Shown piece by piece: positions 11,417 to 48,602 of a stretch of DNA of 64,000 nucleotides. The stretch's first letter is position 1. The number at the start of each line of letters is the position of its first letter. The notes under the pieces are model-generated. The model was not told the origin of the DNA, made no database searches, and saw only the letters and a program-made list of their open reading frames with translations. Source of the stretch: Candidatus Cloacimonadales bacterium (GTDB lineage: Bacteria; Cloacimonadota; Cloacimonadia; Cloacimonadales; JAIOQZ01); NCBI GenBank assembly GCA_963662655.2, contig CAXXTU010000002.1, positions 2,112,001-2,176,000 of the forward strand, written 5' to 3'. The translations under genes and the position numbers were made by a program.

Positions 11417-13273
11417 GTGACAAAGCCAATCGTATGGAAGCTTCTCACGAACCGAGCCAGCACGTTTCATTTGGACGTATCGATCGACGACAGCAACCTC
11501 ATGTCCCCTCGTGGTTACACCGCGAAGAGAGCGCAGTATCGTCTGCTTAAAACTACGAGCATCAAGAATGTGTCGAACCGTCCCATGCGATGCGTTCGCC
11601 TCCGCGTGAACGGCAAACCGCTCGATACGCTCTCCTCTCTGCTCCCTGACATTGGTCAAATGCCCAAGCGAAAAATCGCGCTGCAACTATTCCGATACTG
11701 GCAGAACAACATCATACACTTCCCGGTGGGGCTCAAGGCAGCGCAACACCCCTTCCTGCTCATCAATTACTGGGGCTACAACATCTGCGGTTTTGCGGCA
11801 GCCTTCCTCAGCACAATGATGCAAAACGCCGGCATTCGCGCCCAGAAATTACCGGTGCAGGGGCATGTGGTTCACCAGTACGAAATCAATGGCAGATGGA
11901 TCATTCTCGATGCCGATCTGAATTGCGCGTACCGCATGCTGGACAATAACCGTCTTGCTGGCTACGAGGATATCCTGAAGGATCCGTATCTCGTTCATCG
12001 AACCAACTCATACGGCAGGTACCGGCCTTTCGATCTGGAACGAAATCGATTTTCAGCATCACTATACGATCGCACTTCCCCGCTTCCCGGAAAACCGCCA
12101 GCGTACGACAGCAACGTTTTCGAGCAGTTGGCTGCGTCCGTTTCCCTCTACCCGGGAGAATCGATCCGGTATCGCTACAACGAGACCGTCGAGAACCCCC
12201 TGCGAGAATCCTCCGCCCCGCACCCGAAGGAGCTTGGCGAGATTTCCCTGATGAAGGTTCAATACGAATTCATCCCGGCAGAAAGGCCAGTGAACGAGCG
12301 CGGCGAAAGAGTACTTTTCACAAGGTATCCGATACGAAGCATAAGGTTCTCGAAATCCGGTCGCGAGATCGAACTTCCGAATGACCGGATCGTAACGAAC
12401 ATCAGCATTCCCTCGAATGTTGAGGAGAATGTTCTTTGCAATTGCCAGTGCAGCCGGATCGCTGCCCCGCGAGTAAAACGCGGTTTGAATACGATACGAC
12501 TGGACTGTCTCGATCGCGAGATCGAAGCGGAATTTTCGTTCGAAGTGGATGAGGAGGTTGCCGGGATGTCGCCGCCGGGACAACCGGCTTTGATCGTGAA
12601 AAGCGAATACGTGGATGAGCCGGTGCGTTTCCGCTGGAATCCGGAGAATGCCCAATCGATATGGATTCAGGTGCTGGGCGATGACGATCAACCGCTGCTG
12701 GACTACATTCGTAATGCCGAAGAGACGATTGAGTTCCATCCCATCGAGCAGACCTTCTTCAGCAACGGAGGAAAGTATCGCGTGAGGGCCAGGCAGCAAA
12801 TCGACGACATCTATAGCGAATGGACGGATGACATCGAATTTTCCGTACGGAAGCCCGAGGTGCCAAAAAACATCTGGATTTACGCCGACGAAAAAGGGGG
12901 AATTACCGCCAACTGGGAAGGGGAAAGCGATTGCGAATTTCTCCTTTTCGGCAGCAATCGTATTGATTTTGTCCCGGATGTTTTCTCGAGTAACGAACCT
13001 GTGAAGGGTCTGGACGGAAAATTGGAGCTGAAGTCCGTGAAGAATCTGATCGCGAGAACGGAGGCCACAACCTGCCGGATTCCCGAGCCTTGCGCTTTCT
13101 ACAGGATCATCGCGTTTCGCGGGGGCATGTACTCGAATCCATCGGTCATGGTGGATTTCTCACGCAATGTCGAATGGCTTCATCGATTCAAGCTCATCCC
13201 GGAAGTATTACAAACGTATCACCGGAAAATCGATGGAGAAAACCGGTACGACACCGTTCTCGAGAAGTTGTAA
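11417..13273 (+). CDS. Transglutaminase-like (Cys-His-Asp) domain protein with C-terminal FN3/Ig-like region
   Basis: YNICGFAAA, GHVVHQY, WIILDADLN; AAGGTGA RBS with GTG start. Confidence 0.65.
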   Translation: MTKPIVWKLLTNRASTFHLDVSIDDSNLMSPRGYTAKRAQYRLLKTTSIKNVSNRPMRCVRLRVNGKPLDTLSSLLPDIGQMPKRKIALQLFRYWQNNIIHFPVGLKAAQHPFLLINYWGYNICGFAAAFLSTMMQNAGIRAQKLPVQGHVVHQYEINGRWIILDADLNCAYRMLDNNRLAGYEDILKDPYLVHRTNSYGRYRPFDLERNRFSASLYDRTSPLPGKPPAYDSNVFEQLAASVSLYPGESIRYRYNETVENPLRESSAPHPKELGEISLMKVQYEFIPAERPVNERGERVLFTRYPIRSIRFSKSGREIELPNDRIVTNISIPSNVEENVLCNCQCSRIAAPRVKRGLNTIRLDCLDREIEAEFSFEVDEEVAGMSPPGQPALIVKSEYVDEPVRFRWNPENAQSIWIQVLGDDDQPLLDYIRNAEETIEFHPIEQTFFSNGGKYRVRARQQIDDIYSEWTDDIEFSVRKPEVPKNIWIYADEKGGITANWEGESDCEFLLFGSNRIDFVPDVFSSNEPVKGLDGKLELKSVKNLIARTEATTCRIPEPCAFYRIIAFRGGMYSNPSVMVDFSRNVEWLHRFKLIPEVLQTYHRKIDGENRYDTVLEKL

Positions 13274-13377
13274 GCGTTGCACAAGCGTGACACGCATCAG
13301 TCATAGTTTCTTGCAAAAACTCATCTTGGAAATTCCTTGACATAATCTTCAGCCTCAGCGGTTTCGTTATCGGATTA

Positions 13378-13443
13378 GCGGATAAGCTTTGTACGGGGAG
13401 TCAGGTAACTGCCTCCCTGTTTATGTCTGCAAAAAGCATCCGC
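13378..13443 (+). promoter_or_regulatory. Candidate structured 5' leader of glnA
   Basis: GCGGAT/ATCCGC and GCTTT/AAAGC enclose ACGGGGAG..CAG-GTAA-CTG..CTCCCTGT; TTGACA lies upstream near 13337. Confidence 0.4.
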
Positions 13444-13477
13444 CATCAAGACGAAAGCAATGTACCGGAGGTTATAC

Positions 13478-14908
13478 ATGACACCCGTAATGGAACGTGT
13501 AAATGAACTGATCCTTGAGCACGACATCAAGGCTATTGACCTGAAATACTCTGATTTGATGGGAAACTGGTATCACATCACATTCCCGGCATACCACCTC
13601 AAAAGCGTAATGGAACATGGAATCTCGTTTGACGGGTCTTCAATCCCTGGCATGCGGGCGGTAGAGTCTGGCGACATGGTCTTGATTCCCGATCTCAGCA
13701 CAGCCATTATCGATCCTTTCACCAAATATCCCACGCTCAGGATGTTATGTTACATCTGCGACGCGGACACGCGAATCGGTTTCATCAAGGACCCACGCAG
13801 CCTGGCAAAGCGCGCCCAGGAATATATGGCAGGTACCGGCATCGCCGATCAGTCTCTCTGGATTCCGGAATTCGAGTTCTACCTTTTCAACGAAGCTGAA
13901 ATCACGAACGGGAAATACAATGCCGGATTCGCTTTCACTTCCGCCGAGAACAAGGAAGACCTTCCTTTCGGATATCGTGACAAGAACGGAACCGCCGTAG
14001 CAAACCGCAAGGGCTATCATATCGATGTCCCATTCGACAAATACGCCGATATCCGCCAGGAAATGGTGAACGCCATCGAGAACATCGGTTGCAGCGTTCG
14101 CTACCATCATCACGAAGTGGGGCTCTCCTCGCAGCAGGAAATCGAGACGACGCTCCTGCCTTTCGAGCAGATCACCGACCAGATGATGTACATCAAGGAC
14201 ATTATCCACAACACGGCTCTCAAGCACGATCTTTCCGCCACATTCATGCCGAAACCGCTGTACGATGAGCCGGGCAACGGTATGCACTTCCACATTCAGT
14301 TGCGCAAAAACGGTAAGAACGTCTTTTACAAGCAAGGTAACTACGCCGACCTCTCCAACGAAGCGCTCTGGTTCATTGGCGGCATCCTGCATCACGGCAG
14401 ATCGCTTACTGCCTTCACGAATCCGAGTACGAACTCGTTCAAGCGCCTGCTCCCGGGTTTCGAAGCTCCGGTTAAACTGTTCTTCGGACTCGCGAACCGC
14501 AGCGCCGCGATTCGTATTCCCAAGTACGCCACCAGCGAGGAAGACAAGCGAATCGAGTTCCGTACCGGAGACGGCACTTGCAACTACTACTTCGCGATGA
14601 GCGCGCTCCTGATGGCCGGTTTGGACGGCATAAAGAACAAGATCATGCCCACAAAGGAAAACGGGTACGGTCCTTACGACGACAACGTGTTCAGTTGGAA
14701 CGAAGAAGACAAGCAGAAGCTTGTGTCAATCCCGACCTCACTCGAAGAAGCGCTCGAAGCGCTGAAGGAAGACCACGATTACCTGCTCGAAGGCGGCGTA
14801 TTCAACGAAGACCTGATTCAGAGCTGGATCACCGAGAAGATGAAGGAAGTCGTCGCGGTGCGCAACCGTCCGCATCCTTTCGAAATGAACCTGTACTACA
14901 GCCTGTAG
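13478..14908 (+). CDS. glnA: Glutamine synthetase type I
   Basis: FDGSSI; PEFEFYLF; HHHEV; ATFMPKP; GNGMHFH; NRSAAIRIP; RIEFR; GGAGG RBS before ATG 13478. Confidence 0.97.
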   Translation: MTPVMERVNELILEHDIKAIDLKYSDLMGNWYHITFPAYHLKSVMEHGISFDGSSIPGMRAVESGDMVLIPDLSTAIIDPFTKYPTLRMLCYICDADTRIGFIKDPRSLAKRAQEYMAGTGIADQSLWIPEFEFYLFNEAEITNGKYNAGFAFTSAENKEDLPFGYRDKNGTAVANRKGYHIDVPFDKYADIRQEMVNAIENIGCSVRYHHHEVGLSSQQEIETTLLPFEQITDQMMYIKDIIHNTALKHDLSATFMPKPLYDEPGNGMHFHIQLRKNGKNVFYKQGNYADLSNEALWFIGGILHHGRSLTAFTNPSTNSFKRLLPGFEAPVKLFFGLANRSAAIRIPKYATSEEDKRIEFRTGDGTCNYYFAMSALLMAGLDGIKNKIMPTKENGYGPYDDNVFSWNEEDKQKLVSIPTSLEEALEALKEDHDYLLEGGVFNEDLIQSWITEKMKEVVAVRNRPHPFEMNLYYSL

Positions 14909-14922
14909 TTTACGATATTCCC

Positions 14923-14957
14923 AAAATCCCCTATCGACGATCTCGATAGGGGATTTT
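14923..14957 (+). terminator. glnA terminator
   Basis: Perfect 15-bp inverted repeat AAAATCCCCTATCGA/TCGATAGGGGATTTT followed by a T-rich tract. Confidence 0.9.
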
Positions 14958-15002
14958 TCTTTCTGGGAGCCCCGCTCAACCGCAGTCGGAAAGCACGCTC
15001 CC

Positions 15003-15114
15003 GCGGCGGGGCGGCGTTGGAAGCGAACGCTTCCAGACCCCGTTTCCACGAGTTTCCGGCCGGAAAACTCGTGGAAACGGGGTCGTGTGCCTTGCACACA
15101 CGCCGCCCCGCCGC
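15003..15114 (+). repeat. Four-way-junction (cloverleaf) element, copy 1
   Basis: 15-bp closing stem GCGGCGGGGCGGCGT/ACGCCGCCCCGCCGC encloses three contiguous hairpins of 8, 20 and 6 bp; related copy at 47049-47230. Confidence 0.85.
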
Positions 15115-15230
15115 TGAGTCGGGTGGAATTAGCAGATTGCATTCTTCCTGGTGGGTGCAAATCGCGGGTACATATTATAAGGAACATTTTTTGCATGTAC
15201 ATGGGCTAATTCAAATTCATGGAGATTATT

Positions 15231-18200
15231 ATGAAGAGACTTACCGGGGGGAGAAGTATCAGAGCATACTTCATATTCTCAATCCTACTGATTTTCAGTA
15301 TGTTATCGGCCTACGAACTTGAACTTGGAAATCCTGAGAACGTACCATTGTTTTCTTGCAGTGAATCGAACGACGCTTTTACGGAATTCACTTTCACCCT
15401 TGATGGTATCGAGGTGACCGAGGAAGTCGTAAACGGAATGATTTTCCAGCACTTAGAACACAGTAAAGCAGCCTACACACTCGATGCGGGAATGCCTGAA
15501 TTCCCAGTTTTCGGTACAATGATTGCAATTCCCGACCTCGGAAACGTGTCGTTCGAAATTGTAAACCAGATTTACCGTAGATTCAATGACTTTTATATAT
15601 ATCCGTCGCAAGGCGTGACCCTCGAAGGTAATCCCCACGAATTCCATTACAATGAAAGTTACTATGGCGGAAAAGGCACCTATGACCTTCAGCCGGTGCT
15701 GGTTGGAGAACCTGCCATCATGCGCGACTGGCGTACCGTTCCGGTCAACATTCAACCCGTGAAATGGGATGTCAAGACAGGAGAACTTCAAGTCATCACA
15801 AAATTGACGGTTCGTCTGAACTACTCCAGCGAACCGAGCATCAATGAACTCGATCGCAGCCAGAGAAAGCTCTCCAGAAGCTTCGAAGCGCTTTACGAAG
15901 GATCCATCCTCAACTACAGCCTGATTCGCGACGAAGACCCCGAGTATCAAACTCGTAGCATCCTCGTGATCCACCCAAACGTAACCGAAGTTACGGAGCA
16001 GGTAACCAGCTTCGCGAATTGGAAACGCCAGAAAGGATTTAAAATCACCACGGCTAGCACATCCCAAACCGGAACCAGCAACAGCTCGGTCAAAAGCTAC
16101 ATCCAGAGCATGTACGACGATGAAGAAGATCGTCCTGAATACGTTGTTATCGTTGGCGACGTCAGCGGTTCCATCGGCATTCCGACCTGGATTGAGAACT
16201 ACAGCTACTACAACGGCGAGGGCGACCACCCCTACACGCTGCTCGATGGTAACGACTACCTCAGCGACGTGTTTATCGGCCGCATTTCCGTTTCCACAGT
16301 AACGGAATTGATGACCTTCCTCTCCAAGATGAATATCTACGAACGCAATGTCAACATCGCCGCGCCCGAGCGGTTCCATCGCAGTCTCCTTGTCGGCGAT
16401 ACGAGTCCTTCAGGCTTCTCATGCATTGTTACCAACAAATACGTGAAAGATCAAATCCTTTCGAAGGATCCGGAACACACGTTTACCGAGCTCTATGCCG
16501 CTGACCCAAGCCCGAATGATATGGATACCGCGATCAATGCTGGCGTCCTCTTCTTCAACTACCGCGGCTGGATCGGTATGAGCGGCTGGACCACAAGTAA
16601 TATATCAGGGCTCTCGAATATTAGCAAAATCTGTAATGCAACGATCATCACCTGCGATACGGGTTCTTTCAGCGGCACTGCTCGAACAGAAGCCTTTATC
16701 CGCGCCGGATCGCCATCCGCACCCAAAGGCGCAGTTTCTGCTATAGGTATGGCTACATCCGGTACGCACACCCAGTTCAACAACATGCTCGACGGCGGTA
16801 TCTACCACGGACTTCAATCCCTGGGCATGCGCACGATGGGTGAAGCGGTCAACAACGCAAAGGTCGAGTTCTATGTGGCGTACTACAATATTGCCCAGAA
16901 CTACGTGAACATGTTCACACACTGGTTCAACCAGATGGGTGATCCCACGATGGATGTTTGGGTTAATATGCCGCTTGAAATGAATGTTTCATACGACGAC
17001 AACCTGCCCTTCGGACAGGATTACATCGAAGTCAACGTTACCGACGACGATAGCTACCCTATCGAAAACGCCTGGGTAACGGCACGCAAAGGAAATGACG
17101 AAATATTCGCGTCAGGCTACACCGACAATATCGGTAACATCGTTCTACAATTCGATGGCGAAAACGCAGGCGATGTCGATCTCACCGTTACAAAACCCGA
17201 CTACATTCCTCACCTCGGCGAGTTTACAATCAGCTCCACAGGCGGAATCGCATATTACTCCATGAACATTGACGATGACAACGGCGGAAACTCGAGCGGA
17301 AACGGAAATGGAAATGTAGAACCGGGCGAAACGATCGAATTGATCGTCAATCTGAAAAACTATGATTCAAGCAGCTATTCGAACGTCAGCGCAGAGCTGA
17401 TCGCGAACGATCCATACGTGGAAATCACAACCGCTGACGGCGACTATGGAACGATGTCCGCCGGTGGAACGGCTGAAGTAAGCCAGGCTTACGTCTTCAC
17501 CGTTAGCCCCGACGCTCCGGACAACCATCAGTTCCAGTTCCTTCTGGACATCGAAGACGGAAGCACGAACGACTGGACCGGACGCCTTTGGATCACAATT
17601 GCCGGTAACGATATCGATATCCAGTCGCTGAGCGTCATAGACGGCAATAACACCATGGACCCGGGTGACACGGTTCAGCTCCGCTTCACCATCGTCAACA
17701 ACGGCCAGACCGATCTCGACGATGTTTGGGGCGAACTCCGCTCCCTCAACGGTCTTGTGGGCGTTAACGACTCCATCGGATACTTCGGTAGCATCAGTGC
17801 GGGACAAACAGCAACCTGCACCACAGATAACTACGAAGTCTACTCCATGGCACAGATACTTCCCGGCATGCAGATCCCGCTCGAACTGGTTCTCTACAAC
17901 ACGGATGGATACGAAGAGGAAGAAATCGCAAAACTTCCCATCGGTAATGTAACGGTTACCGACCCGCTTGGACCGGATGCTTACGGATACGTTTGCTACG
18001 ACTCCAACGATTCCGATTACGCGGATGCCCCCGAGTACGACTGGATCGAGATCAATCCTTCCAACGGCGGTCAGGGAACGAGCGCCGGCGTTGGCGATTC
18101 CAGCATCGAAAGCGGAACCATCAATTTCTTCGATCTGCCGTTTACCTTCACCTTCTACGGAGAAGAATACGATAACATCGGTATCTGCTCGAACGGATAT

Positions 18201-20744
18201 GTAACATTCGGATATCCCGAATCGGAAAACGTTTCCTTCCGTAACTGGCAGATCCCCGGCGCAATGGGACCAAGCCCCATGATCGCCGGACTCTGGGAAG
18301 ACCTCACTTCGAACAGCGGAGGCGTCTACTACTGGTTCGATGAAGAATCGGCTCAACCCGCATTTATCATTGAATATGACAACTGCCAGCTCGCCTCGGG
18401 CGGAAACGTCACATTCGAAATCATTCTCTACAATCCCGAGCACAACGCCACACCGCAAGGTGACGGTCTGATCAAGATTCAATATCAGGAATTCGAAAAT
18501 ACGGATTCTTACAACGAAGCCAGCGGCCCTCAAGGCAACTATTGTACGATCGGTATCGAAGATCATACAGGAACCGTCGGGCTTCAATACACATACGAAA
18601 ACGATTACCCTGCCGGAGCGATGCCACTTGCCGACAACACGGCAATCCTCTTCTCAGGCATTCCGATCATCTACCCGGATTCATTCCTCATGCTCGGTGA
18701 CATCATCGTTCACGATGAAAACGGAAGCGGCATTATCGACGCCGGCGAATCCGTTGATCTCGGCGTATTCATGCAGAACGTCGGCCTGACGGAAACCAGC
18801 GGCGCTTTCGCAACGCTCAGCTGTTACGATCCCTACGTTACCGTTACGGCAGACACCTCCTCCTACCAGTCGATTGGAAGCGGACAATCCGCTACAAACA
18901 CGCATTTCTTCTCGTTCTCGACCCTTCCGCAAACGCCGGACAACCACGTTATCACATTCGAAATGAACATCGAGAACAGCGATGGCGATTGGGATTACAT
19001 GTTCACAGCAGTAGTGCGCAGATCTTCGGTACACGTGATCTCTTCCATGATCAACGACATCGACGAGAACAACAACGGCGTGATGGACCCGGGCGAGACG
19101 GCGAAGCTGATTATCAACCTGGGTAACGACTCCGATTCACCGGCTTATGACGTTAGTGCGGCTCTGAGTACGGACAGCGAGTACGTGACGATCGGGACTT
19201 CCGAAGTCGTGTACGGCGACATTATGCCAGGCCATAACATGCAGAAGGTATTCATGATCACGGTTAGCGAAGACGCGGTAACTCCGGGCTCGGCTGACTT
19301 CGATCTGGAAATCGAGCACATGTATACCGAGCCTTCGATCTACTCCTTCCCAATGGGTATCGGCGACTGGGGATTCCAGGAAAGCTTCGAGACGGACAAC
19401 GGCGGATTCTATTCCTATGCCGGCTGGCAATACGGTATTCCTTCCGTCGGGGCGCATTCCGGCGACAAGTGCTGGGCGACTCACATCGCGGCGAACTATG
19501 GTAACAACGTTAGCTGGTACCTCAACACGCAGCGCTTCTTTATCGGAGACAACACCCAACTCACCTTCTGGCAGTATTTCGACACGGAAGCCGGATACGA
19601 CGGCGGTAACGTGAAGATATCCAACTCCAACGGCATCGCTTGGGATTTAATCTACCCGGTTGGCGGTTACAACACGAACAACATTTATAACGGAACCTCT
19701 GGCGTGGGCGGCGAGCCGGGATTTACCGGCGAGTCCGGCGGCTGGCAGCAGGTTACCTTCGATCTCTCGGAATACACCGGCAATGAAATCATTCTGCGCT
19801 GGCACTTCGGCACGAACAGCTCCACCGTCGACTACGGTTGGGCCATCGACGACGTGGTGGTATCCGGAGGTCAGGAACGCTCCGGAATCATCAACGGAAC
19901 GGTCTCGCTCAGCGATCCCTACGGTGACCTGGTACTTACGGAGATCACCGTTGGCGATTACACGACATTCCCGAACAACGAGGGTAATTACGAACTCTAC
20001 GTCCCGGGCGGTCTGTACGATCTCACCGCCACCCTTCCAGGATTCGAAATCGGTCTTTACGAAGACGTGACCATCGAGGCCGGACAGGAGTTCGAGGACT
20101 ACGATTTCGAACTCACCTATCTGTGCCCCCCAGCGGAATTGGACAAGAATCTCAACACATCCACCGGCGCTCTCGAGCTCTTCTGGGCCTACAACCCGCC
20201 GACAGTGGCTCGCGACAGCGGTCGCAAGCAGACTACGCTGGATCGTGACGAATTCATTCAGTTCAACATCTACAAGCAGACCGAGAGCGGATACTACGTG
20301 ATGGTGGACAGCACCGAATCGCAGGAATGGAACGACACCGTCGACATGCATCGCATTTATCGCTACTACGTGACCGCGCTGTACGACACCGGCGAAAGCC
20401 TTCCGTCCAACATCCTCGGCGTCAACATCAACACGAACGCAACCGGCGAAGAGGGCGTTATCGAGTTCACCAACAACCTGGAGAACAACTACCCGAATCC
20501 GTTCAACCCGGAAACGACCTTCGCGTTCTCCATTGCGGAACCCGGCAAGGTTAGCCTGCGGGTGTACAACGTGAGAGGCCAGTTGGTAAAAACCCTGACA
20601 AACGACCGACTGGATGCCGGACGCCACACCATTACGTGGAACGGTACGGCCAACACGGGCAAGCCGGTTTCTTCCGGTATTTACTTCTACCGCCTCGAAA
20701 CCGACAACTATACGAAAACACGCAAAGCGCTGCTCCTCAAGTAG
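15231..20744 (+). CDS. Gingipain-like C25 family protein: propeptide, C25 domain, Ig/adhesin-like domains, FN3 and FlgD/T9SS-like CTD
   Basis: Signal peptide; WKRQKG; YVVIVGD; DHPYTLLDGND..SDVFIGRIS; ITCDTG; NQMGDP; C-terminal NYPNPFNPET...KALLLK. Confidence 0.9.
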   Translation: MKRLTGGRSIRAYFIFSILLIFSMLSAYELELGNPENVPLFSCSESNDAFTEFTFTLDGIEVTEEVVNGMIFQHLEHSKAAYTLDAGMPEFPVFGTMIAIPDLGNVSFEIVNQIYRRFNDFYIYPSQGVTLEGNPHEFHYNESYYGGKGTYDLQPVLVGEPAIMRDWRTVPVNIQPVKWDVKTGELQVITKLTVRLNYSSEPSINELDRSQRKLSRSFEALYEGSILNYSLIRDEDPEYQTRSILVIHPNVTEVTEQVTSFANWKRQKGFKITTASTSQTGTSNSSVKSYIQSMYDDEEDRPEYVVIVGDVSGSIGIPTWIENYSYYNGEGDHPYTLLDGNDYLSDVFIGRISVSTVTELMTFLSKMNIYERNVNIAAPERFHRSLLVGDTSPSGFSCIVTNKYVKDQILSKDPEHTFTELYAADPSPNDMDTAINAGVLFFNYRGWIGMSGWTTSNISGLSNISKICNATIITCDTGSFSGTARTEAFIRAGSPSAPKGAVSAIGMATSGTHTQFNNMLDGGIYHGLQSLGMRTMGEAVNNAKVEFYVAYYNIAQNYVNMFTHWFNQMGDPTMDVWVNMPLEMNVSYDDNLPFGQDYIEVNVTDDDSYPIENAWVTARKGNDEIFASGYTDNIGNIVLQFDGENAGDVDLTVTKPDYIPHLGEFTISSTGGIAYYSMNIDDDNGGNSSGNGNGNVEPGETIELIVNLKNYDSSSYSNVSAELIANDPYVEITTADGDYGTMSAGGTAEVSQAYVFTVSPDAPDNHQFQFLLDIEDGSTNDWTGRLWITIAGNDIDIQSLSVIDGNNTMDPGDTVQLRFTIVNNGQTDLDDVWGELRSLNGLVGVNDSIGYFGSISAGQTATCTTDNYEVYSMAQILPGMQIPLELVLYNTDGYEEEEIAKLPIGNVTVTDPLGPDAYGYVCYDSNDSDYADAPEYDWIEINPSNGGQGTSAGVGDSSIESGTINFFDLPFTFTFYGEEYDNIGICSNGYVTFGYPESENVSFRNWQIPGAMGPSPMIAGLWEDLTSNSGGVYYWFDEESAQPAFIIEYDNCQLASGGNVTFEIILYNPEHNATPQGDGLIKIQYQEFENTDSYNEASGPQGNYCTIGIEDHTGTVGLQYTYENDYPAGAMPLADNTAILFSGIPIIYPDSFLMLGDIIVHDENGSGIIDAGESVDLGVFMQNVGLTETSGAFATLSCYDPYVTVTADTSSYQSIGSGQSATNTHFFSFSTLPQTPDNHVITFEMNIENSDGDWDYMFTAVVRRSSVHVISSMINDIDENNNGVMDPGETAKLIINLGNDSDSPAYDVSAALSTDSEYVTIGTSEVVYGDIMPGHNMQKVFMITVSEDAVTPGSADFDLEIEHMYTEPSIYSFPMGIGDWGFQESFETDNGGFYSYAGWQYGIPSVGAHSGDKCWATHIAANYGNNVSWYLNTQRFFIGDNTQLTFWQYFDTEAGYDGGNVKISNSNGIAWDLIYPVGGYNTNNIYNGTSGVGGEPGFTGESGGWQQVTFDLSEYTGNEIILRWHFGTNSSTVDYGWAIDDVVVSGGQERSGIINGTVSLSDPYGDLVLTEITVGDYTTFPNNEGNYELYVPGGLYDLTATLPGFEIGLYEDVTIEAGQEFEDYDFELTYLCPPAELDKNLNTSTGALELFWAYNPPTVARDSGRKQTTLDRDEFIQFNIYKQTESGYYVMVDSTESQEWNDTVDMHRIYRYYVTALYDTGESLPSNILGVNINTNATGEEGVIEFTNNLENNYPNPFNPETTFAFSIAEPGKVSLRVYNVRGQLVKTLTNDRLDAGRHTITWNGTANTGKPVSSGIYFYRLETDNYTKTRKALLLK

Positions 20745-20867: not shown

Positions 20868-20974
20868 CTTTCCATGATATGCAGATACCCAATGTCTCTA
20901 TTTGATCTTCTTTCTTGACATTTCTTATGAATAGCAAGCACTTTTGCTTTGTATATTAATTGATGGAGGTAAAT

Positions 20975-22021
20975 ATGGCAACCAGCGAGGCGAAATGCCC
21001 TGTTTGTGGGCAAGAAGCAGAAATCCTGAACCCCGGTAATAATAATTATAGAAATGCAACAAAATATCACTGCGAGTTGTGTGGGTATTTCATGATTACT
21101 GATGATAATGGATTGCTTACGGAGATTGAGAACAACATAGGAAAAAATCATGAACTGATTTTTGCACTCAGAAAACACAGTTCAAAAGATAATATTGTCC
21201 AAATTAGTTCGAGTGAAGATTTTGATAGGCTAATTAGTGAAACTCAATTCCCTCAAACTTGGAAGGAAAAGGAGAAACTATTAGCGTTTTACGTATATGA
21301 TCGCATGGGAAAGAAAAATGGGGATGTTTTTATAGATAAAGCAACTTGTGCAGTGATGGGGGTTTCTGATCAACTTGAGTTCCGAAAGTATAGACAAAAC
21401 ATAATTAACAGCCCTTTATTTAACAAGCAGAAAACCCTGTTAGCAAACGCGACTATTGGACTTACCCTTTCAACTTATGGAATTAATTATATTGAATCTA
21501 TACTGTATCCTGAAGAACCTCAAGAGGAAAAAACAATGTCTATCACGCAAAAAAAACAATGGAAAAAAGCCTGCTTCCTTGTACATGGACGGGATGATGC
21601 TTTTAAAAATAAAGTAGCACGATATATAGAGAAAAACTATAATCTAGATGTTATTATTCTCCATGAACGACCTAATGCCGGACGCACTATTTTGGAGAAG
21701 TTTGAAGCACATTCCTCGGATGATGTCATCGACTTTGCGTTATGTCTCTACACGCCCGATGATATTGGATGCCTGGCTGGAGATGCTTCCGATCCTGCAA
21801 GCATGAGTAAAAGAGCGAGACAGAACGTAATCTTTGAAGCAGGTTATTTCTTCGGAAAGCTTGGACGGAAAAGAACAATAATATTGAAAGCGCCAACTGT
21901 AGAAAACCCCTCCGACATTCATGGCTTGGGCTACATCGGCACTGAAGGACAGTGGACCACTGATCTTGATAAAGAAATCTCCGCCATCTACGGCGACGAT
22001 ATCAAAGACATCAGGAAGTAG
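20975..22021 (+). CDS. Zn-ribbon + TIR-like nucleotide-binding domain protein (CAP12/Pycsar-type TIR), putative defence effector
   Basis: CPVC..CELC N-terminus; C-terminal FLVHGRD, LHERPNAGRTILEKFE, YTPDD, RARQNVIFEAGYFFGKLGR, PSDIHG; visibly AT-rich; GGAGG RBS and its own TTGACA at 20915. Confidence 0.85.
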   Translation: MATSEAKCPVCGQEAEILNPGNNNYRNATKYHCELCGYFMITDDNGLLTEIENNIGKNHELIFALRKHSSKDNIVQISSSEDFDRLISETQFPQTWKEKEKLLAFYVYDRMGKKNGDVFIDKATCAVMGVSDQLEFRKYRQNIINSPLFNKQKTLLANATIGLTLSTYGINYIESILYPEEPQEEKTMSITQKKQWKKACFLVHGRDDAFKNKVARYIEKNYNLDVIILHERPNAGRTILEKFEAHSSDDVIDFALCLYTPDDIGCLAGDASDPASMSKRARQNVIFEAGYFFGKLGRKRTIILKAPTVENPSDIHGLGYIGTEGQWTTDLDKEISAIYGDDIKDIRK

Positions 22022-30054: not shown

Positions 30055-30081
30055 CTGGAATATATGATCGTGAATTGCGAG

Positions 30082-30177
30082 GCGTGAGCAGATTCGTTCG
30101 ATCTGCTTGCGCAGGCGTGGTGTTACACGTCTTTTTATTAGAGTTCGATAGTTTTCAAGACGTGTTATATCCACGCC
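30082..30177 (+). repeat. Double-hairpin intergenic element; its 20-nt core recurs at 56336-56355
   Basis: GCGTGAGCAGAT/ATCTGCTTGCGC; GGCGTGG..ACACGTCTT/AAGACGTGT..CCACGCC. Confidence 0.45.
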
Positions 30178-30228
30178 GGAGCGCAGATCGTGCGAAGATG
30201 CCATGCCGGTAGACCAATGATAAAAAAA

Positions 30229-44767: not shown

Positions 44768-46906
44768 TTATGCTTGTGTTTGAGGCAAAGCGATCTTCAT
44801 GATCGTTCCTTCGCCGGGCGTGCTGTTTACCGTTATTTCGCCCTCAAATTCCTTGATGATGCCGTAACAAACCGGCAGTCCCAAGCCTGTTCCTTTTCCG
44901 TCCTTCTTCTTCGTGAAGAAGGGATCGAAAATCATGTCGATGTACTCCGGCTCAATCCCGCTACCGTTGTCCTCCACCTTCAGCACGATCGACTTCGCTT
45001 CCATCGCCGTGGAGATGGTTATCCTCTTCTTGTAATCGAGAACACCGGTATCACGCTCTTTCTCTTCCGTTGCATCGCGCGCGTTGGCGATCAGGTTGAG
45101 CAGCACCTGTTCCAGCTTCAAGGGATGCCCAATAACGGGCGGAAGCGGTTCGAGAAGGTCCAGCACGACGTCTAATCCATGTTTTCGGTATTGCTCGTTG
45201 AATAATAGCAGTGTGTTTTTTACCACGTGGTTCAGGTCGACTTTTTCGTAGGTGGTCAACTGTTGGTCTCTGCTAAACGTCTTGATATGGTCGATGATGA
45301 GCTTGATGCGCTCGGTTTCTTTAAGGAACTGACGCGTCTTGAGAACGGTAAATTCGTTGTTCAGCTTGCCCAATCGATCCGTGAAAAGCAGGTTATCGAG
45401 TCCCATCGTGATTCGGGTCAGCGGCTGGTTCACTTCGTGAGCGATACCGGCAGCAAGCTGTCCCAGCGATTCGAGCTTGGATTTCTGGATAATGATGCGC
45501 TGCTGCTCCTGACGCCTTTCCAATTCCTGCTGAACCCGCATCTCCAGCTCCTCGGTCTTGATTCTGTAAATTTCCGCATCCTTTCTCGCGAGATCGGTCT
45601 CCTGCCGCGCCAGCTTCGCGTCCTGCTCCTTCTGCTCGATTTCGTGATGGATGCGCATCACGGCGATCGCTCTTGTCTTCTCAGTATCGAATTGCTTTTT
45701 ACTTAGCGTGCTCCACTCCTTCATGGTCTCAAAAGCATTCCGGTATTCTCCGCATGCCTCCCAGCATTCGGAGAAATCGAGCAAGATTTCCATCTGCCTT
45801 AACGTATTATCCTGCTCCTTCGCAAGAGCAAGCGCATCTTCAAAATACCTCTGTGCCTCCGTCAGGTTACCAGAACACATCAATGTTTCCCCAAGATATT
45901 GCAGAATGGCTGGACGTTCGTTCACTAGATTATACTCGTAACTCAAATGCAGAGATTTATTGAGAAGCTCAAGAGCTTTCCCGTAGTCCGCATAAAATTC
46001 CTTGTGAACCAGCGCCATGTTCTGATAGAGCGTCGGCATTCCGAAGCGCTCATCGATCGCCAGTTTCTTTTCGAGCGATTTCTCGAAGTAACGCATCGCT
46101 CTCTTGGGTCGTTTATTGTTCTTGTAGATCAGACCAATATTCAGAAATGAAATCGCCATTCTTTTTTCGTCGTTACATTTCCGCAAGAGTTTCCAAGCTT
46201 TTCTATGATACTGCAAGCTTTGATACGGTTCGCCCAGTGAAAGCATAACCAGCCCGACATTCACACAAGCACTGATTATCATCAGCGGATTCTCTAATTC
46301 CCGGCATAGTTGATATGCCTCAAGACCACGTTCCAGAGCATGATCCAGTTCGCCAAGATTGTAATAAAATCCGGAGAGATTGCTCAGGGTAGTGGCAATT
46401 TGATATTTCAGTCTTTTTGTCTGCTTGAATTCACTCGTTATATTCAGATATCTTATTGCGTACTCCATTGCCTTGATGAAATTACCCTGATATGATGATG
46501 TGACGGCTATGAGGTTTATTGTAGCGGCCCGTAAAGATTCGTTGTCAGTCTCGTTCAGCACTTCAAGGGCTTGGGCGGCAGTTTTTTCCGCAGCGATTAT
46601 TTCACCCTTTGTGCCCTGGATCGATCCTTTGACGTACAAGCACAGCGCAATTCCGCGTTTATATTCTAATTTTTGGGAAAGCTCCATTCCATCCTCGACA
46701 AATCGAAACGCTCGTTCAAGCTCGCGAAGATGCATGCAACAGGTGGCGCTCAGTGTGTAGAAACTGATCAACGTGGTTTCTTCCTGATACTTGTCAGCTT
46801 CTTGAATAATTCCATCAAGAATTCCCAGAGCTGCGCTATATTCACCGTCGTCCCTCTTCTGGTTGGCTTTCTCCAAAATTGTTTTCAAGTGCTCACTTCG
46901 TTCCAT
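44768..46906 (-). CDS. TPR-sensor histidine kinase
   Basis: GAGGAAATCA-ATG at 46906; TPR array; AHEVNQPL; NLIANARDA; DNGSGI; FDPFFTKK; GTGLGL. The ORF-track extension to 47308 reads through non-coding DNA and the IS end. Confidence 0.9.
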   Translation of the reverse strand: MERSEHLKTILEKANQKRDDGEYSAALGILDGIIQEADKYQEETTLISFYTLSATCCMHLRELERAFRFVEDGMELSQKLEYKRGIALCLYVKGSIQGTKGEIIAAEKTAAQALEVLNETDNESLRAATINLIAVTSSYQGNFIKAMEYAIRYLNITSEFKQTKRLKYQIATTLSNLSGFYYNLGELDHALERGLEAYQLCRELENPLMIISACVNVGLVMLSLGEPYQSLQYHRKAWKLLRKCNDEKRMAISFLNIGLIYKNNKRPKRAMRYFEKSLEKKLAIDERFGMPTLYQNMALVHKEFYADYGKALELLNKSLHLSYEYNLVNERPAILQYLGETLMCSGNLTEAQRYFEDALALAKEQDNTLRQMEILLDFSECWEACGEYRNAFETMKEWSTLSKKQFDTEKTRAIAVMRIHHEIEQKEQDAKLARQETDLARKDAEIYRIKTEELEMRVQQELERRQEQQRIIIQKSKLESLGQLAAGIAHEVNQPLTRITMGLDNLLFTDRLGKLNNEFTVLKTRQFLKETERIKLIIDHIKTFSRDQQLTTYEKVDLNHVVKNTLLLFNEQYRKHGLDVVLDLLEPLPPVIGHPLKLEQVLLNLIANARDATEEKERDTGVLDYKKRITISTAMEAKSIVLKVEDNGSGIEPEYIDMIFDPFFTKKKDGKGTGLGLPVCYGIIKEFEGEITVNSTPGEGTIMKIALPQTQA

Positions 46907-47048
46907 TGATTTCCTCAATATGGGTGATATCTCAATCAGGAGATTCTTTCCGCGACTTGTCCAGAAAAATTTAACCGCCATAATCTCCATATCTTCATGT
47001 TCTCCCCGGCTGTACTGAATGTCCGACTCGAGAATGCGCACCAGCTCA

Positions 47049-47230
47049 GCGCGGCGGGGCGGCGGATGTGCTTCGCACACGGTATATTTCCCCATGTAAG
47101 CGTATTGTTTACATGGGGAAATATACCAAGAAGCCCTACGGAATATCCAGCACATGGTTGTTCCGATTTGATCCGACCTGTGCAAGCATGATGCTGGATT
47201 CGTAGGGCTTCTTCCGCCGCCCCGCCGCGC
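47049..47230 (-). repeat. Four-way-junction (cloverleaf) element, copy 2
   Basis: 17-bp closing stem GCGCGGCGGGGCGGCGG/CCGCCGCCCCGCCGCGC encloses three contiguous arms (13 bp plus extension, 21 bp, 6 bp). Confidence 0.85.
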
Positions 47231-47255
47231 GGTCGGTAACTCGCATTTATTTTTT

Positions 47256-48602
47256 GGCACTGTTGCAAACTTAGTGGGTAAGTCGAAAAAAAGATTGAGA
47301 GGAATCACCCGATCTCGTACAATCTCCTAATCACCACAACAAGGAGATAGAGATGAATGATCCTCTCAGAAAACAAGTCTGTAAAACGTTGTTGGCTTTG
47401 CAAGGTTATTCTGCCGACCAGATAATCGAAGGTACGTATCAAACTTATCCATGCATTGAAGTCCATGTTCGAAAGGAAGATGAGCCACGTTGTCCTACAT
47501 GCGGTATTGTGGGAACAGTTTATGATCATCGAGTCCGCAAAATTCTTCATGCATCCATATCCTGTCGTCCCGTAGTACTTGTGCTGACGCTTCGCCGGAT
47601 CAACTGCGCTCAGTGTGGAGTGAAAACTGAACAACAGGATATTGCCGAGGGTCTCAATCGACACTCTAAAGACTTCGGCAATAAGGTTCTCCAGTTCACG
47701 CTTCGTTCAGACAATGCTTCTGTAGCACGGATATTCGGTGTGGATCGGAGTACGATTTATCGAATCGACAAAATTGAGTTATCCAAGTTGGAAAAGGGTT
47801 ATAGAGGACGAGTTCCGAATGTCGATCAGATTGCAATTGACGAGATTGGTTATAAGCGAAGGCATAAGTATGCAACGGTTATCACAAACCATGAGGACGG
47901 GCGTGTGATCGACCTGACAATGGGCAAATCGAAAGAAAGTGCGAAGGAGTTGTTTCGAAAATACGAACGACGACTCCGCTGGATTGATACCGTAACAATG
48001 GATTTCAGTGGTTCATATATCGGCGCTGTTTCCGAGTGTTGGAGTGCCGATATGATCGTATTTGATCGTTTCCATTTCAGCCGCCTGGTCAACAGAAAAG
48101 TGGAAGAAGTACGACGAGAACTTCAGAGAGATTTTGAATCTGACAAGTTGCGTCAGAGCAAGAAACACGACCGGTGGTTGGTTTTGACCAGAAAACACAA
48201 TCACAAAGAAAACCATCAAGCCCGACTCAAGAAACTGGAGACGCTAAATCATCCCCTTTACGAAGCCTATTTGCTCAAAGAAGATTTACTATCGATTTTC
48301 GAAGACGATATTACGCAAGAAGAAGCGAAGCCGATGATTGAAGAGTGGTGCAGAGTTATTCAGAAAACCGTCTTCGAGCCACTGAAGGCACTTGCAAGAA
48401 CGATTATGAAGAGATTGCATATTGTGTTGAACTGGTTCAAGCATAGAATCACGAATGCCAAGGCAGAAGCGGTTAACAACGTCATTCGAACCATTATAAA
48501 GAGAGCGTATGGATACAAGGACTTCTCATACTTCAGATTGAAGGTTCTGCAATGTTGCGGATATCTGAATACCCATTCACCCACTTAATATGCAACAGTG
48601 CC
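47256..48602 (+). mobile_element. ISL3-family insertion sequence, 1347 bp
   Basis: Left end GGCACTGTTGCAAACTTAGTGGGT versus reverse complement of right end GGCACTGTTGCATATTAAGTGGGT; single transposase; AT-rich flanks; no clear target duplication. Confidence 0.92.
47353..48588 (+). CDS. ISL3 transposase
   Basis: Zn finger CPTC..CAQC; IAIDE; VTMDF; VFDRFH; TNAKAEAVNN..IKRAYGY. Confidence 0.95.
   Translation: MNDPLRKQVCKTLLALQGYSADQIIEGTYQTYPCIEVHVRKEDEPRCPTCGIVGTVYDHRVRKILHASISCRPVVLVLTLRRINCAQCGVKTEQQDIAEGLNRHSKDFGNKVLQFTLRSDNASVARIFGVDRSTIYRIDKIELSKLEKGYRGRVPNVDQIAIDEIGYKRRHKYATVITNHEDGRVIDLTMGKSKESAKELFRKYERRLRWIDTVTMDFSGSYIGAVSECWSADMIVFDRFHFSRLVNRKVEEVRRELQRDFESDKLRQSKKHDRWLVLTRKHNHKENHQARLKKLETLNHPLYEAYLLKEDLLSIFEDDITQEEAKPMIEEWCRVIQKTVFEPLKALARTIMKRLHIVLNWFKHRITNAKAEAVNNVIRTIIKRAYGYKDFSYFRLKVLQCCGYLNTHSPT

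Follow-up and report, generated by a model that had tools for sequence, protein, structure and literature searches.

A dispersed intergenic element predicted to fold as a four-way junction, with 76 complete copies in a Candidatus Cloacimonadales genome

Two copies of the element and their surroundings

The window, by which we mean the whole stretch of 64,000 nucleotides that was analysed, covers positions 2112001–2176000 of contig C2 of the genome under study (G000). On its forward strand, glnA (13460–14908) is followed by an intrinsic-terminator-like hairpin (14923–14957) and then by a gene for a peptidase C25 / type IX-sorted protein (15219–20744). glnA has different next genes in five other genomes (G001, G002, G003, G004 and G007), and the peptidase gene lies elsewhere in congeners. 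Between the terminator-like hairpin and the peptidase gene lies copy 1 of the element (15003–15114, forward strand), with a core of 112 nt, a short arm A and a score of 88.7 bits under our covariance model R1.

An earlier note, made from the letters of the window, had described this segment as a perfect four-way junction, and the predicted fold agrees. The closing stem pairs 15003–15017 with 15100–15114 and encloses, all on the forward strand, arm A (15018–15035), arm B (15036–15084, an inverted repeat of about 20 bp) and arm C (15085–15099, 6 bp with the triloop CTT), with zero unpaired bases at the junction. Within the 5′ half of the stem, the inner GGCGGCG is almost invariant across the family; the base of arm A is usually GAAGCC..GGCTTC in the family, and arm B is hypervariable in sequence while keeping its length. 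The 2-nt AA loop that the note had drawn for arm A is an impossible closure, the predicted fold being 7 bp with a 4-nt loop. Its arm C stands as a stem with a triloop, but the CTT of copy 1 is atypical, since 55 of the 76 copies have a c-GNA-g loop. As the note had also stated, the glnA terminator is a hairpin of its own outside the element. Degenerate flanks of about 35–40 nt, with approximate limits, lie on both sides of the core: the 5′ flank (14963–15002, forward strand) ends in CC and the 3′ flank (15115–15150, forward strand) starts with TG and has a consensus like TGAGTCGG.

Copy 1 folds with a z-score of −11.35 as RNA and −12.63 as DNA, and 0 of 200 shuffles equal it. A public-run contig is identical to the window over 11600–19382, which speaks against mis-assembly of the copy 1 region, although the contig probably comes from the source sample and is hence not independent.

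Copy 2 (47049–47230, reverse strand) belongs to the class with a long arm A, carries a GAA triloop and scores 81.8 bits, with a folding z-score of about −13.0. Just outside it lies an ISL3 insertion sequence (47256–48602, forward strand), one of 13 genomic copies, whose ends are unlike the stem of the element. A duplicate of copy 2, together with 351 bp of its 3′ flank, lies 80 kb away at 98% identity (46698–47257 of the window and C2:2239155–2239708 of G000); each half of this duplication adjoins an ISL3 copy, and a third ISL3 lies 21 nt from another copy of the element. A histidine-kinase frame (44768–47308, reverse strand) is open through copy 2, its likely start being 3′ of the element near 46998. 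Elsewhere in the window, 20960–22021 (forward strand) encodes a CAP12/Pycsar-type TIR-domain protein, possibly a defence gene.

A second, unrelated hairpin repeat has one copy in the window (approximately 30081–30207, forward strand) and 79 in G000. Members of this family, also undescribed, form a long hairpin in which the internal loop is conserved, G-A pairs occur in tandem and the tip varies. Their orientation to replication is strongly biased (14/76 on the G-rich strand, p=2e-8), and they prefer convergent gaps (35/79). Each congener has 1–3 motif matches, G001 has empty collinear sites, and no viral match was obtained.

The novelty of the four-way element holds against Rfam, one of the two comparisons on which the earlier note had made it depend: no family matches at or above its gathering threshold. 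In the window, Rfam 15 matched a tRNA alone, and over eight element loci searched at E values up to 1 it returned a single sub-threshold match to tfoR (32 of 70 bits). In full-text searches of open-access papers, no description of the family was found.

Anatomy, pairing and loop of the family

The earlier note had proposed an undescribed family with maintained structure. This stands, but with far more than the two members it listed: a search of the genome and its relatives, as the note had advised, yields 76 complete copies in G000 and one copy in each of three congeners. In G000, 67 complete copies came from a stem search and 9 more from a looser search, and two further copies are truncated. 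All 76 parse as three arms inside a closing stem in the predicted fold. Every one of the 67 stem-search copies is predicted to be four-way; the junction has at most 4 unpaired bases, and in 23 copies it has none. A detector that takes no account of sequence picked out 42 strict four-way junctions in contig C2, every one a family member; in 2.4 Mb of G001 it picked out 1, and in 1.5 Mb of shuffled DNA none.

The elements are 110–200 nt long, and all are intergenic, between ordinary genes, when reading frames that overlap an element are set aside. They occur in both orientations, dispersed singly and never arrayed, with neighbours at least 4 kb apart and ordinary genes between them. The closing stem measures 15–17 bp in 48 of the 76 copies and has the foot ..CC / TG... 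Its inner part is almost invariant; its outer part varies among copies yet pairs within each (outer 7 bp, 0.90 within a copy and 0.64 between copies), which fits pairing rather than ends read by a protein. Arm A is short (16–32 nt) in 33 copies and long (64–95 nt) in 43. Arm B measures 35–60 nt in 67 copies and 17–28 nt in the other 9; the short form occurs solely alongside a long arm A, and no copy has both arms short. Arm C consists of 6 bp and a triloop in most copies. We note that the core at C2:2402096–2402271 is inverted relative to the usual polarity of the flanks.

Pairing is kept while the sequence drifts. In the closing stem, 1036 of 1064 pairs over the 76 copies are Watson-Crick; in arm B, 992 of 1079 are (about 92%), at a mean pairwise identity of 30%. 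Among 8 close pairs of copies we counted 18 compensated double changes, against an expectation of 3.3 double changes, and also 27 single breaks; stem sites differ at 8% and loop sites at 25%. This bears out the earlier claim in so far as the structure is maintained. The youngest of the close pairs has uncompensated changes only. In a model-fitted alignment, which leans to the model and includes both strands, 95% of cells are paired, as against 39–51% in slid controls. One-sided G-U changes are rare relative to two-sided changes; these counts are inflated, since most copies entered the alignment on both strands. Owing to misalignment, arms A and B went undetected by RNAalifold on a MAFFT alignment.

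The GNA loops of arm C comprise GAA (27), GGA (19), GCA (6) and GTA (3), and five more copies have the loop as its reverse complement. According to passages of PMC13037366, d(GCGNAGC) hairpins melt in the order A > G > C > T (76 > 73 > 71 > 70 °C), GNA triloops alone form the DNA mini-hairpin, and a related mini-hairpin is far weaker in its RNA form. The loop counts of the element track this order of DNA stability, which favors folded DNA over RNA. The asymmetry between G-T and A-C changed with the choice of the folded strand.

Distribution across genomes and the search for an enzyme

A pattern search of 232 genomes of the phylum gave 53 matches in G000, 1 each in G001, G002 and G003, and none in the other 228. 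Across 61 genomes, model R1 matched in G000, G001 and G002 only; it missed a true long copy in G003 and is thus weak on the long class. The exact pattern has 5 matches in 185,579 species genomes, of which 2 are in congeners and 3 lack the fold. Metagenomes gave 83 pattern matches, none with a partner stem; viral contigs gave 0 strict and 50 loose matches, none of the latter scoring with R1; plasmids and phages gave no match. None of the genomes and sequence sets searched outside this genus yielded a copy of the element.

Empty orthologous sites had been suggested as a check, and both filled and empty sites occur between species. One divergent spacer holds a copy in both G001 and G003, with unrelated arms, and is empty in G000, and G001 is without the element at the site collinear with C2:2900540 of G000. 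An intergenic segment beside one G000 copy, at about C2:2900690–2900830 (L341), resembles a structured RNA gene and shows about 90% conservation in G001. Between the G002 copy and the G000 copy at C1:115432 the identity is 91%, and the genes around the two are unrelated. Related cores align from stem to stem only, and the flanks of most such pairs are no closer than those of random pairs, the exception being one 557-bp duplication beside ISL3 copies.

Direct repeats that would indicate a target-site duplication occur in the flanks at chance level (4 bp, 52 against 50.1 expected; 5 bp, 22 against 21.5). No precise empty site could be aligned, no consensus of empty targets was found, and no excision intermediate was seen in the public-run contigs, whose depth is low. 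In those contigs the joints at elements, whose sides are shorter than 30 nt, are best explained by other copies of the element. In a separate G002 locus (L002, 4777–9453), three genes that read as LysM-like, FadL-like and pyrE-like have G001 matches of 65–85% and no tblastn match in the G000 assembly.

No Y1_Tnp/RAYT gene was found in G000 (completeness 98.95%), whereas such genes are present in 6 of 7 family relatives; the best tblastn match of the relatives' Y1 proteins to G000 has an E value of 0.55. The congeners have several RAYT genes (L307, L308, L310, L313, L314 and L350), each with palindromic repeats of its own. Where the flanks of congener RAYTs were read, other palindromes and not this element lie alongside, and 12 of 12 congener Y1 genes are without the element nearby, apart from one loose motif match. 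However, examination of all 12 genes shows that at 5 of the 8 distinct loci a congener RAYT adjoins a gene that borders the element in G000, an overlap with p of about 0.003–0.016 depending on the background chosen; in the same test, 0 of 3 GIY-YIG loci and 0 of 3 testable IS110 loci overlap. G001 gaps at those boundaries are not enriched in G001 repeats (4/30 against 31/154). The coincidence of RAYT loci with element sites may reflect a shared site preference or a lost partnership.

Other candidates in G000 are few. IS110 is absent from our search results, as is Y2, for which the control likewise gave no match. GIY-YIG domains are confined to a 613-aa frame (UvrC by inference) and a small stop-broken piece; the one reverse transcriptase is stop-broken; RuvC is single; all SbcD matches fall below the cut-off; and no dif-like site was found. 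There are six tyrosine recombinases, two conserved genus-wide and three in one mobile island. DDE elements comprise ISL3 (13 copies), IS3-like elements (8) and Mu-like prophages. Loci L316, L317 and L318 comprise three to four partial copies of Mu-like prophage regions and the island, in which a primase and an ArdC-like gene accompany the three tyrosine recombinases. These searches for known enzyme families, about 900 orphan proteins aside, revealed no cognate enzyme in G000, and no copy flanks a cognate nuclease, recombinase, HUH or reverse-transcriptase gene of the kind that the earlier note had suggested looking for. The mobiliser has likely been lost or gone unrecognised.

Readings of the element and comparison with known systems

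On balance, we favor the reading of the element as a non-autonomous, REPIN-like mobile DNA element whose folded form would be recognised by an enzyme other than those found here. Its basis is the observed copy number, geometry, covariation, GNA loop, unrelated flanks and filled and empty sites, together with the predicted fold. The burst in a single lineage, with 53 pattern matches in G000 and one in each congener, points the same way. From the earlier note's suggestion of a mobile element or recombination site, the non-autonomous element read as folded single-stranded DNA fits best; an element-to-element recombination site does not.

In a mechanism of this kind, the locus would become single-stranded briefly or be extruded by supercoiling, and the strand bearing the GNA loop would fold as an immobile junction. 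A structure-reading nuclease or transferase, by analogy most plausibly of HUH type, would bind the inner stem, arm C and the base of arm A, and would require one arm or more to be long, irrespective of sequence. The enzyme would then cut at the stem foot (..CC / stem / TG..), and the core would be moved or exchanged into another free intergenic site without target duplication. Repair of the folded form, or selection, would restore pairing, so that arms would drift while the junction stays. Copies would survive chiefly at transcription-unit boundaries, where gene order also breaks. We infer the cutting at the stem foot, the class of the enzyme and the repair of the arms. The near-perfect pairing of old, diverged copies weighs against mobility, as it may reflect host selection instead. 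Also against this reading count the missing Y1/RAYT gene, the lack of a conserved GT[AG]G foot, of a replichore bias and of an empty-target consensus, and the failure to align a precise empty site.

A bolder and less probable reading is that the element is a new kind of mobile DNA whose recognition signal mimics an immobile Holliday junction folded from one strand, and that an enzyme swaps cores and arms by geometry alone and thereby reshuffles the chromosome. The reader would then be either a novel junction enzyme or the host resolvase machinery, and would excise, invert and swap.

We consider it unlikely that the element serves as a fragile site or a site of one-ended recombination, at which junction cutting joins one flank to a distant locus and copies cause or mark rearrangements. 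The idea draws on gene order in G000 and G001, compared over 2.4 of the 3.9 Mb of G001. With both flanks orthologous, adjacency is kept at 0/15 element gaps against 126/193 gaps of at least 150 nt; with one flank orthologous, at 1/44 against 185/426; and among convergent gaps, at 0/14 against 112/238 (p=3e-4). Neither gap size nor gene orientation explains this breakage. Synteny-block ends carry the element in 43 cases and only 2 copies lie inside blocks, while breakage is one-sided in 33 of 38 cases. Several of the 4–6 kb segments between elements are single synteny blocks.

The association is nevertheless shared by other gaps. In a more tolerant test, collinear gaps amount to 3/34 for the element, 7/40 for the second family, 5/28 for element-free gaps with a terminator and 249/481 for the rest. 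Since element-free terminator gaps are equally broken (p=0.45 against element gaps), rearrangement by the element is unproven. Similarly, the repeats of G001 itself lie at 43 broken and 9 intact gaps, 425 of 500 broken sides are without the element, and block ends behave as independent (6 observed, 6.1 expected). A test of reciprocal closure gave 0/12, with a background of 3/76. Because G000 forms the sister group of the three congeners, the breaks are not assignable to its lineage, and outgroup matches are too patchy to place them; Mu-like prophages and IS elements are other possible causes.

Two specific mechanisms of breakage were rejected, as each predicts elements on both sides of a broken adjacency. 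The element lies on both sides of 1 of 38 broken G001 adjacencies, or 5 of 38 when the second family is counted; the one-sided pattern excludes element-to-element recombination, and the same both-sides test excludes replicative inversion. The pattern is most simply read as survival of the element at free transcription-unit boundaries, with a link to breakpoints that is real and non-specific.

There is a small chance that the host keeps the element as an RNA insulator, terminator or mRNA stabiliser at the ends of transcription units. It folds as stably as RNA, all copies are intergenic, a separate terminator is present in 21/76 element gaps against 47/915 others, and bcr1 of the B. cereus group is transcribed with its cruciform kept in RNA (passages of PMC3184786). 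Against this stand the GNA triloop, found with all four N in the order of DNA stability, the rarity of one-sided G-U changes (in inflated counts), the lack of a U-tail 3′ of the closing stem and the lack of an Rfam family. The sense orientation upstream of a gene that the earlier note had reported for both copies is not general: the downstream gene is sense at 30 and antisense at 46 of the 76 copies (p=0.085), with no preference for sense. No functional class is common to the flanking genes, as judged by Pfam for 45 flanking genes (chosen from 87 listed for a weak or absent G001 match) and 10 window proteins, and by eye for 35 more. A cis-regulatory or non-coding RNA scaffold upstream of genes, the note's other suggestion, is thus disfavored by the missing sense preference, the unrelated neighbours and the DNA-type loop.

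The chance is slimmer that gene conversion has spread the folded DNA as a host signal, either for single-strand priming or replication restart or for the binding of a nucleoid protein that recognises junctions. GNA mini-hairpins do occur at phage G4-type origins, ssiA and the N4 promoter (passages of PMC13037366), and the spacing of the elements on contig C2 is non-random, with 0 neighbour gaps below 4 kb (4.3 expected, p=0.01) and 9 of 4–6 kb (2.7 expected, p=0.0015). However, the congeners manage with one copy each, there is no strand bias to replication (37/73 copies on the G-rich strand), and the burst in a single lineage would be left unexplained. Least probable is a MITE whose stem halves are terminal inverted repeats for a DDE transposase of IS or Mu type, the arms being secondary: inverted ends of 15–17 bp and DDE elements are indeed present in G000, but target-site duplications are absent from the flanks, the ISL3 ends are unrelated, and the element's ends vary between copies while covarying within them.

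For the mobile DNA element that we favor, several known systems invite comparison. The attC sites of integrons combine variable sequence with a conserved fold and are read as single-stranded DNA; their hallmark is an array of same-orientation sites between gene cassettes. The element has no cassette arrays, common orientation, R-box or conserved extrahelical bases, and is four-way rather than a linear hairpin, so that membership was rejected for want of arrays. In the four-way junction of the hairpin ribozyme, two adjacent arms bear the internal loops A and B, which are conserved, whereas the arms of the element are continuous helices of variable sequence.

The closest likeness is to REP and REPIN sequences, which are short, GC-rich, extragenic, high-copy, lineage-specific palindromes without target duplication (passages of PMC3116915, PMC3333891 and PMC6006769); spacers of REPINs likewise keep length and pairing, not sequence, through compensatory change (PMC3116915, in part). 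A REPIN, however, is one long hairpin made from two REPs, while the element has three hairpins within one closing stem. The REP hallmark is a 5′ GT[AG]G tetranucleotide at the hairpin foot (PMC6006769, in part), which is lacking at the stem foot of the element; about 15 of 67 copies, judged by eye, have it within the paired base of arm A. Moreover, G000 has no RAYT, and the element is singly dispersed with an invariant 6-bp GNA arm. We consequently rejected membership of the REP/REPIN-RAYT system, whose tag, RAYT and single hairpin are missing, even though the element is an extragenic, high-copy, compensated palindrome.

The bcr1 repeat is about 155 bp long, group-specific and unconserved in position, with a compensated, cruciform-like fold, and the part of its description consulted in PMC3184786 names no mobiliser. 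It consists of two stem-loops flanked by direct repeats of 5 bp (same source), whereas the element has three arms of hypervariable sequence, a DNA-type GNA loop and no direct repeats. The compensated cruciform is shared; the direct repeats and the B. cereus group are not, and a bcr1-type assignment was rejected. The ends of IS200/IS605 elements and PATEs resemble the element as single-stranded DNA read by structure, without target duplication and with an asymmetric sequence at the hairpin foot, and movement of IS608 type prefers the lagging-strand template (both from passages of PMC3333891). In G000 there is no TnpA, the element has inverted ends, and there is no lagging-strand bias; this assignment was rejected on the missing TnpA and strand preference. 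The GNA mini-hairpins of the G4 origin, ssiA and the N4 virion RNA polymerase promoter have the same GCGNAGC capping a short stem (PMC13037366); in the element, this motif caps an arm of a four-way junction dispersed over the chromosome.

The 76 natural variants supply rules for the structure, namely an invariant inner stem, a 6-bp GNA arm and at least one long arm, and thereby a bait for the protein that would read it. G000, free of RAYTs and with two expanded families, offers a test of whether palindromic repeats can spread or persist without RAYTs, and of whether repeats cause or merely mark rearrangements. In sum, REP, attC and IS200/IS605 sites are hairpins, whereas this family keeps a near-perfect four-helix junction; that the junction is kept while the sequence of its long arm is near random points to recognition of DNA junction geometry by a protein.
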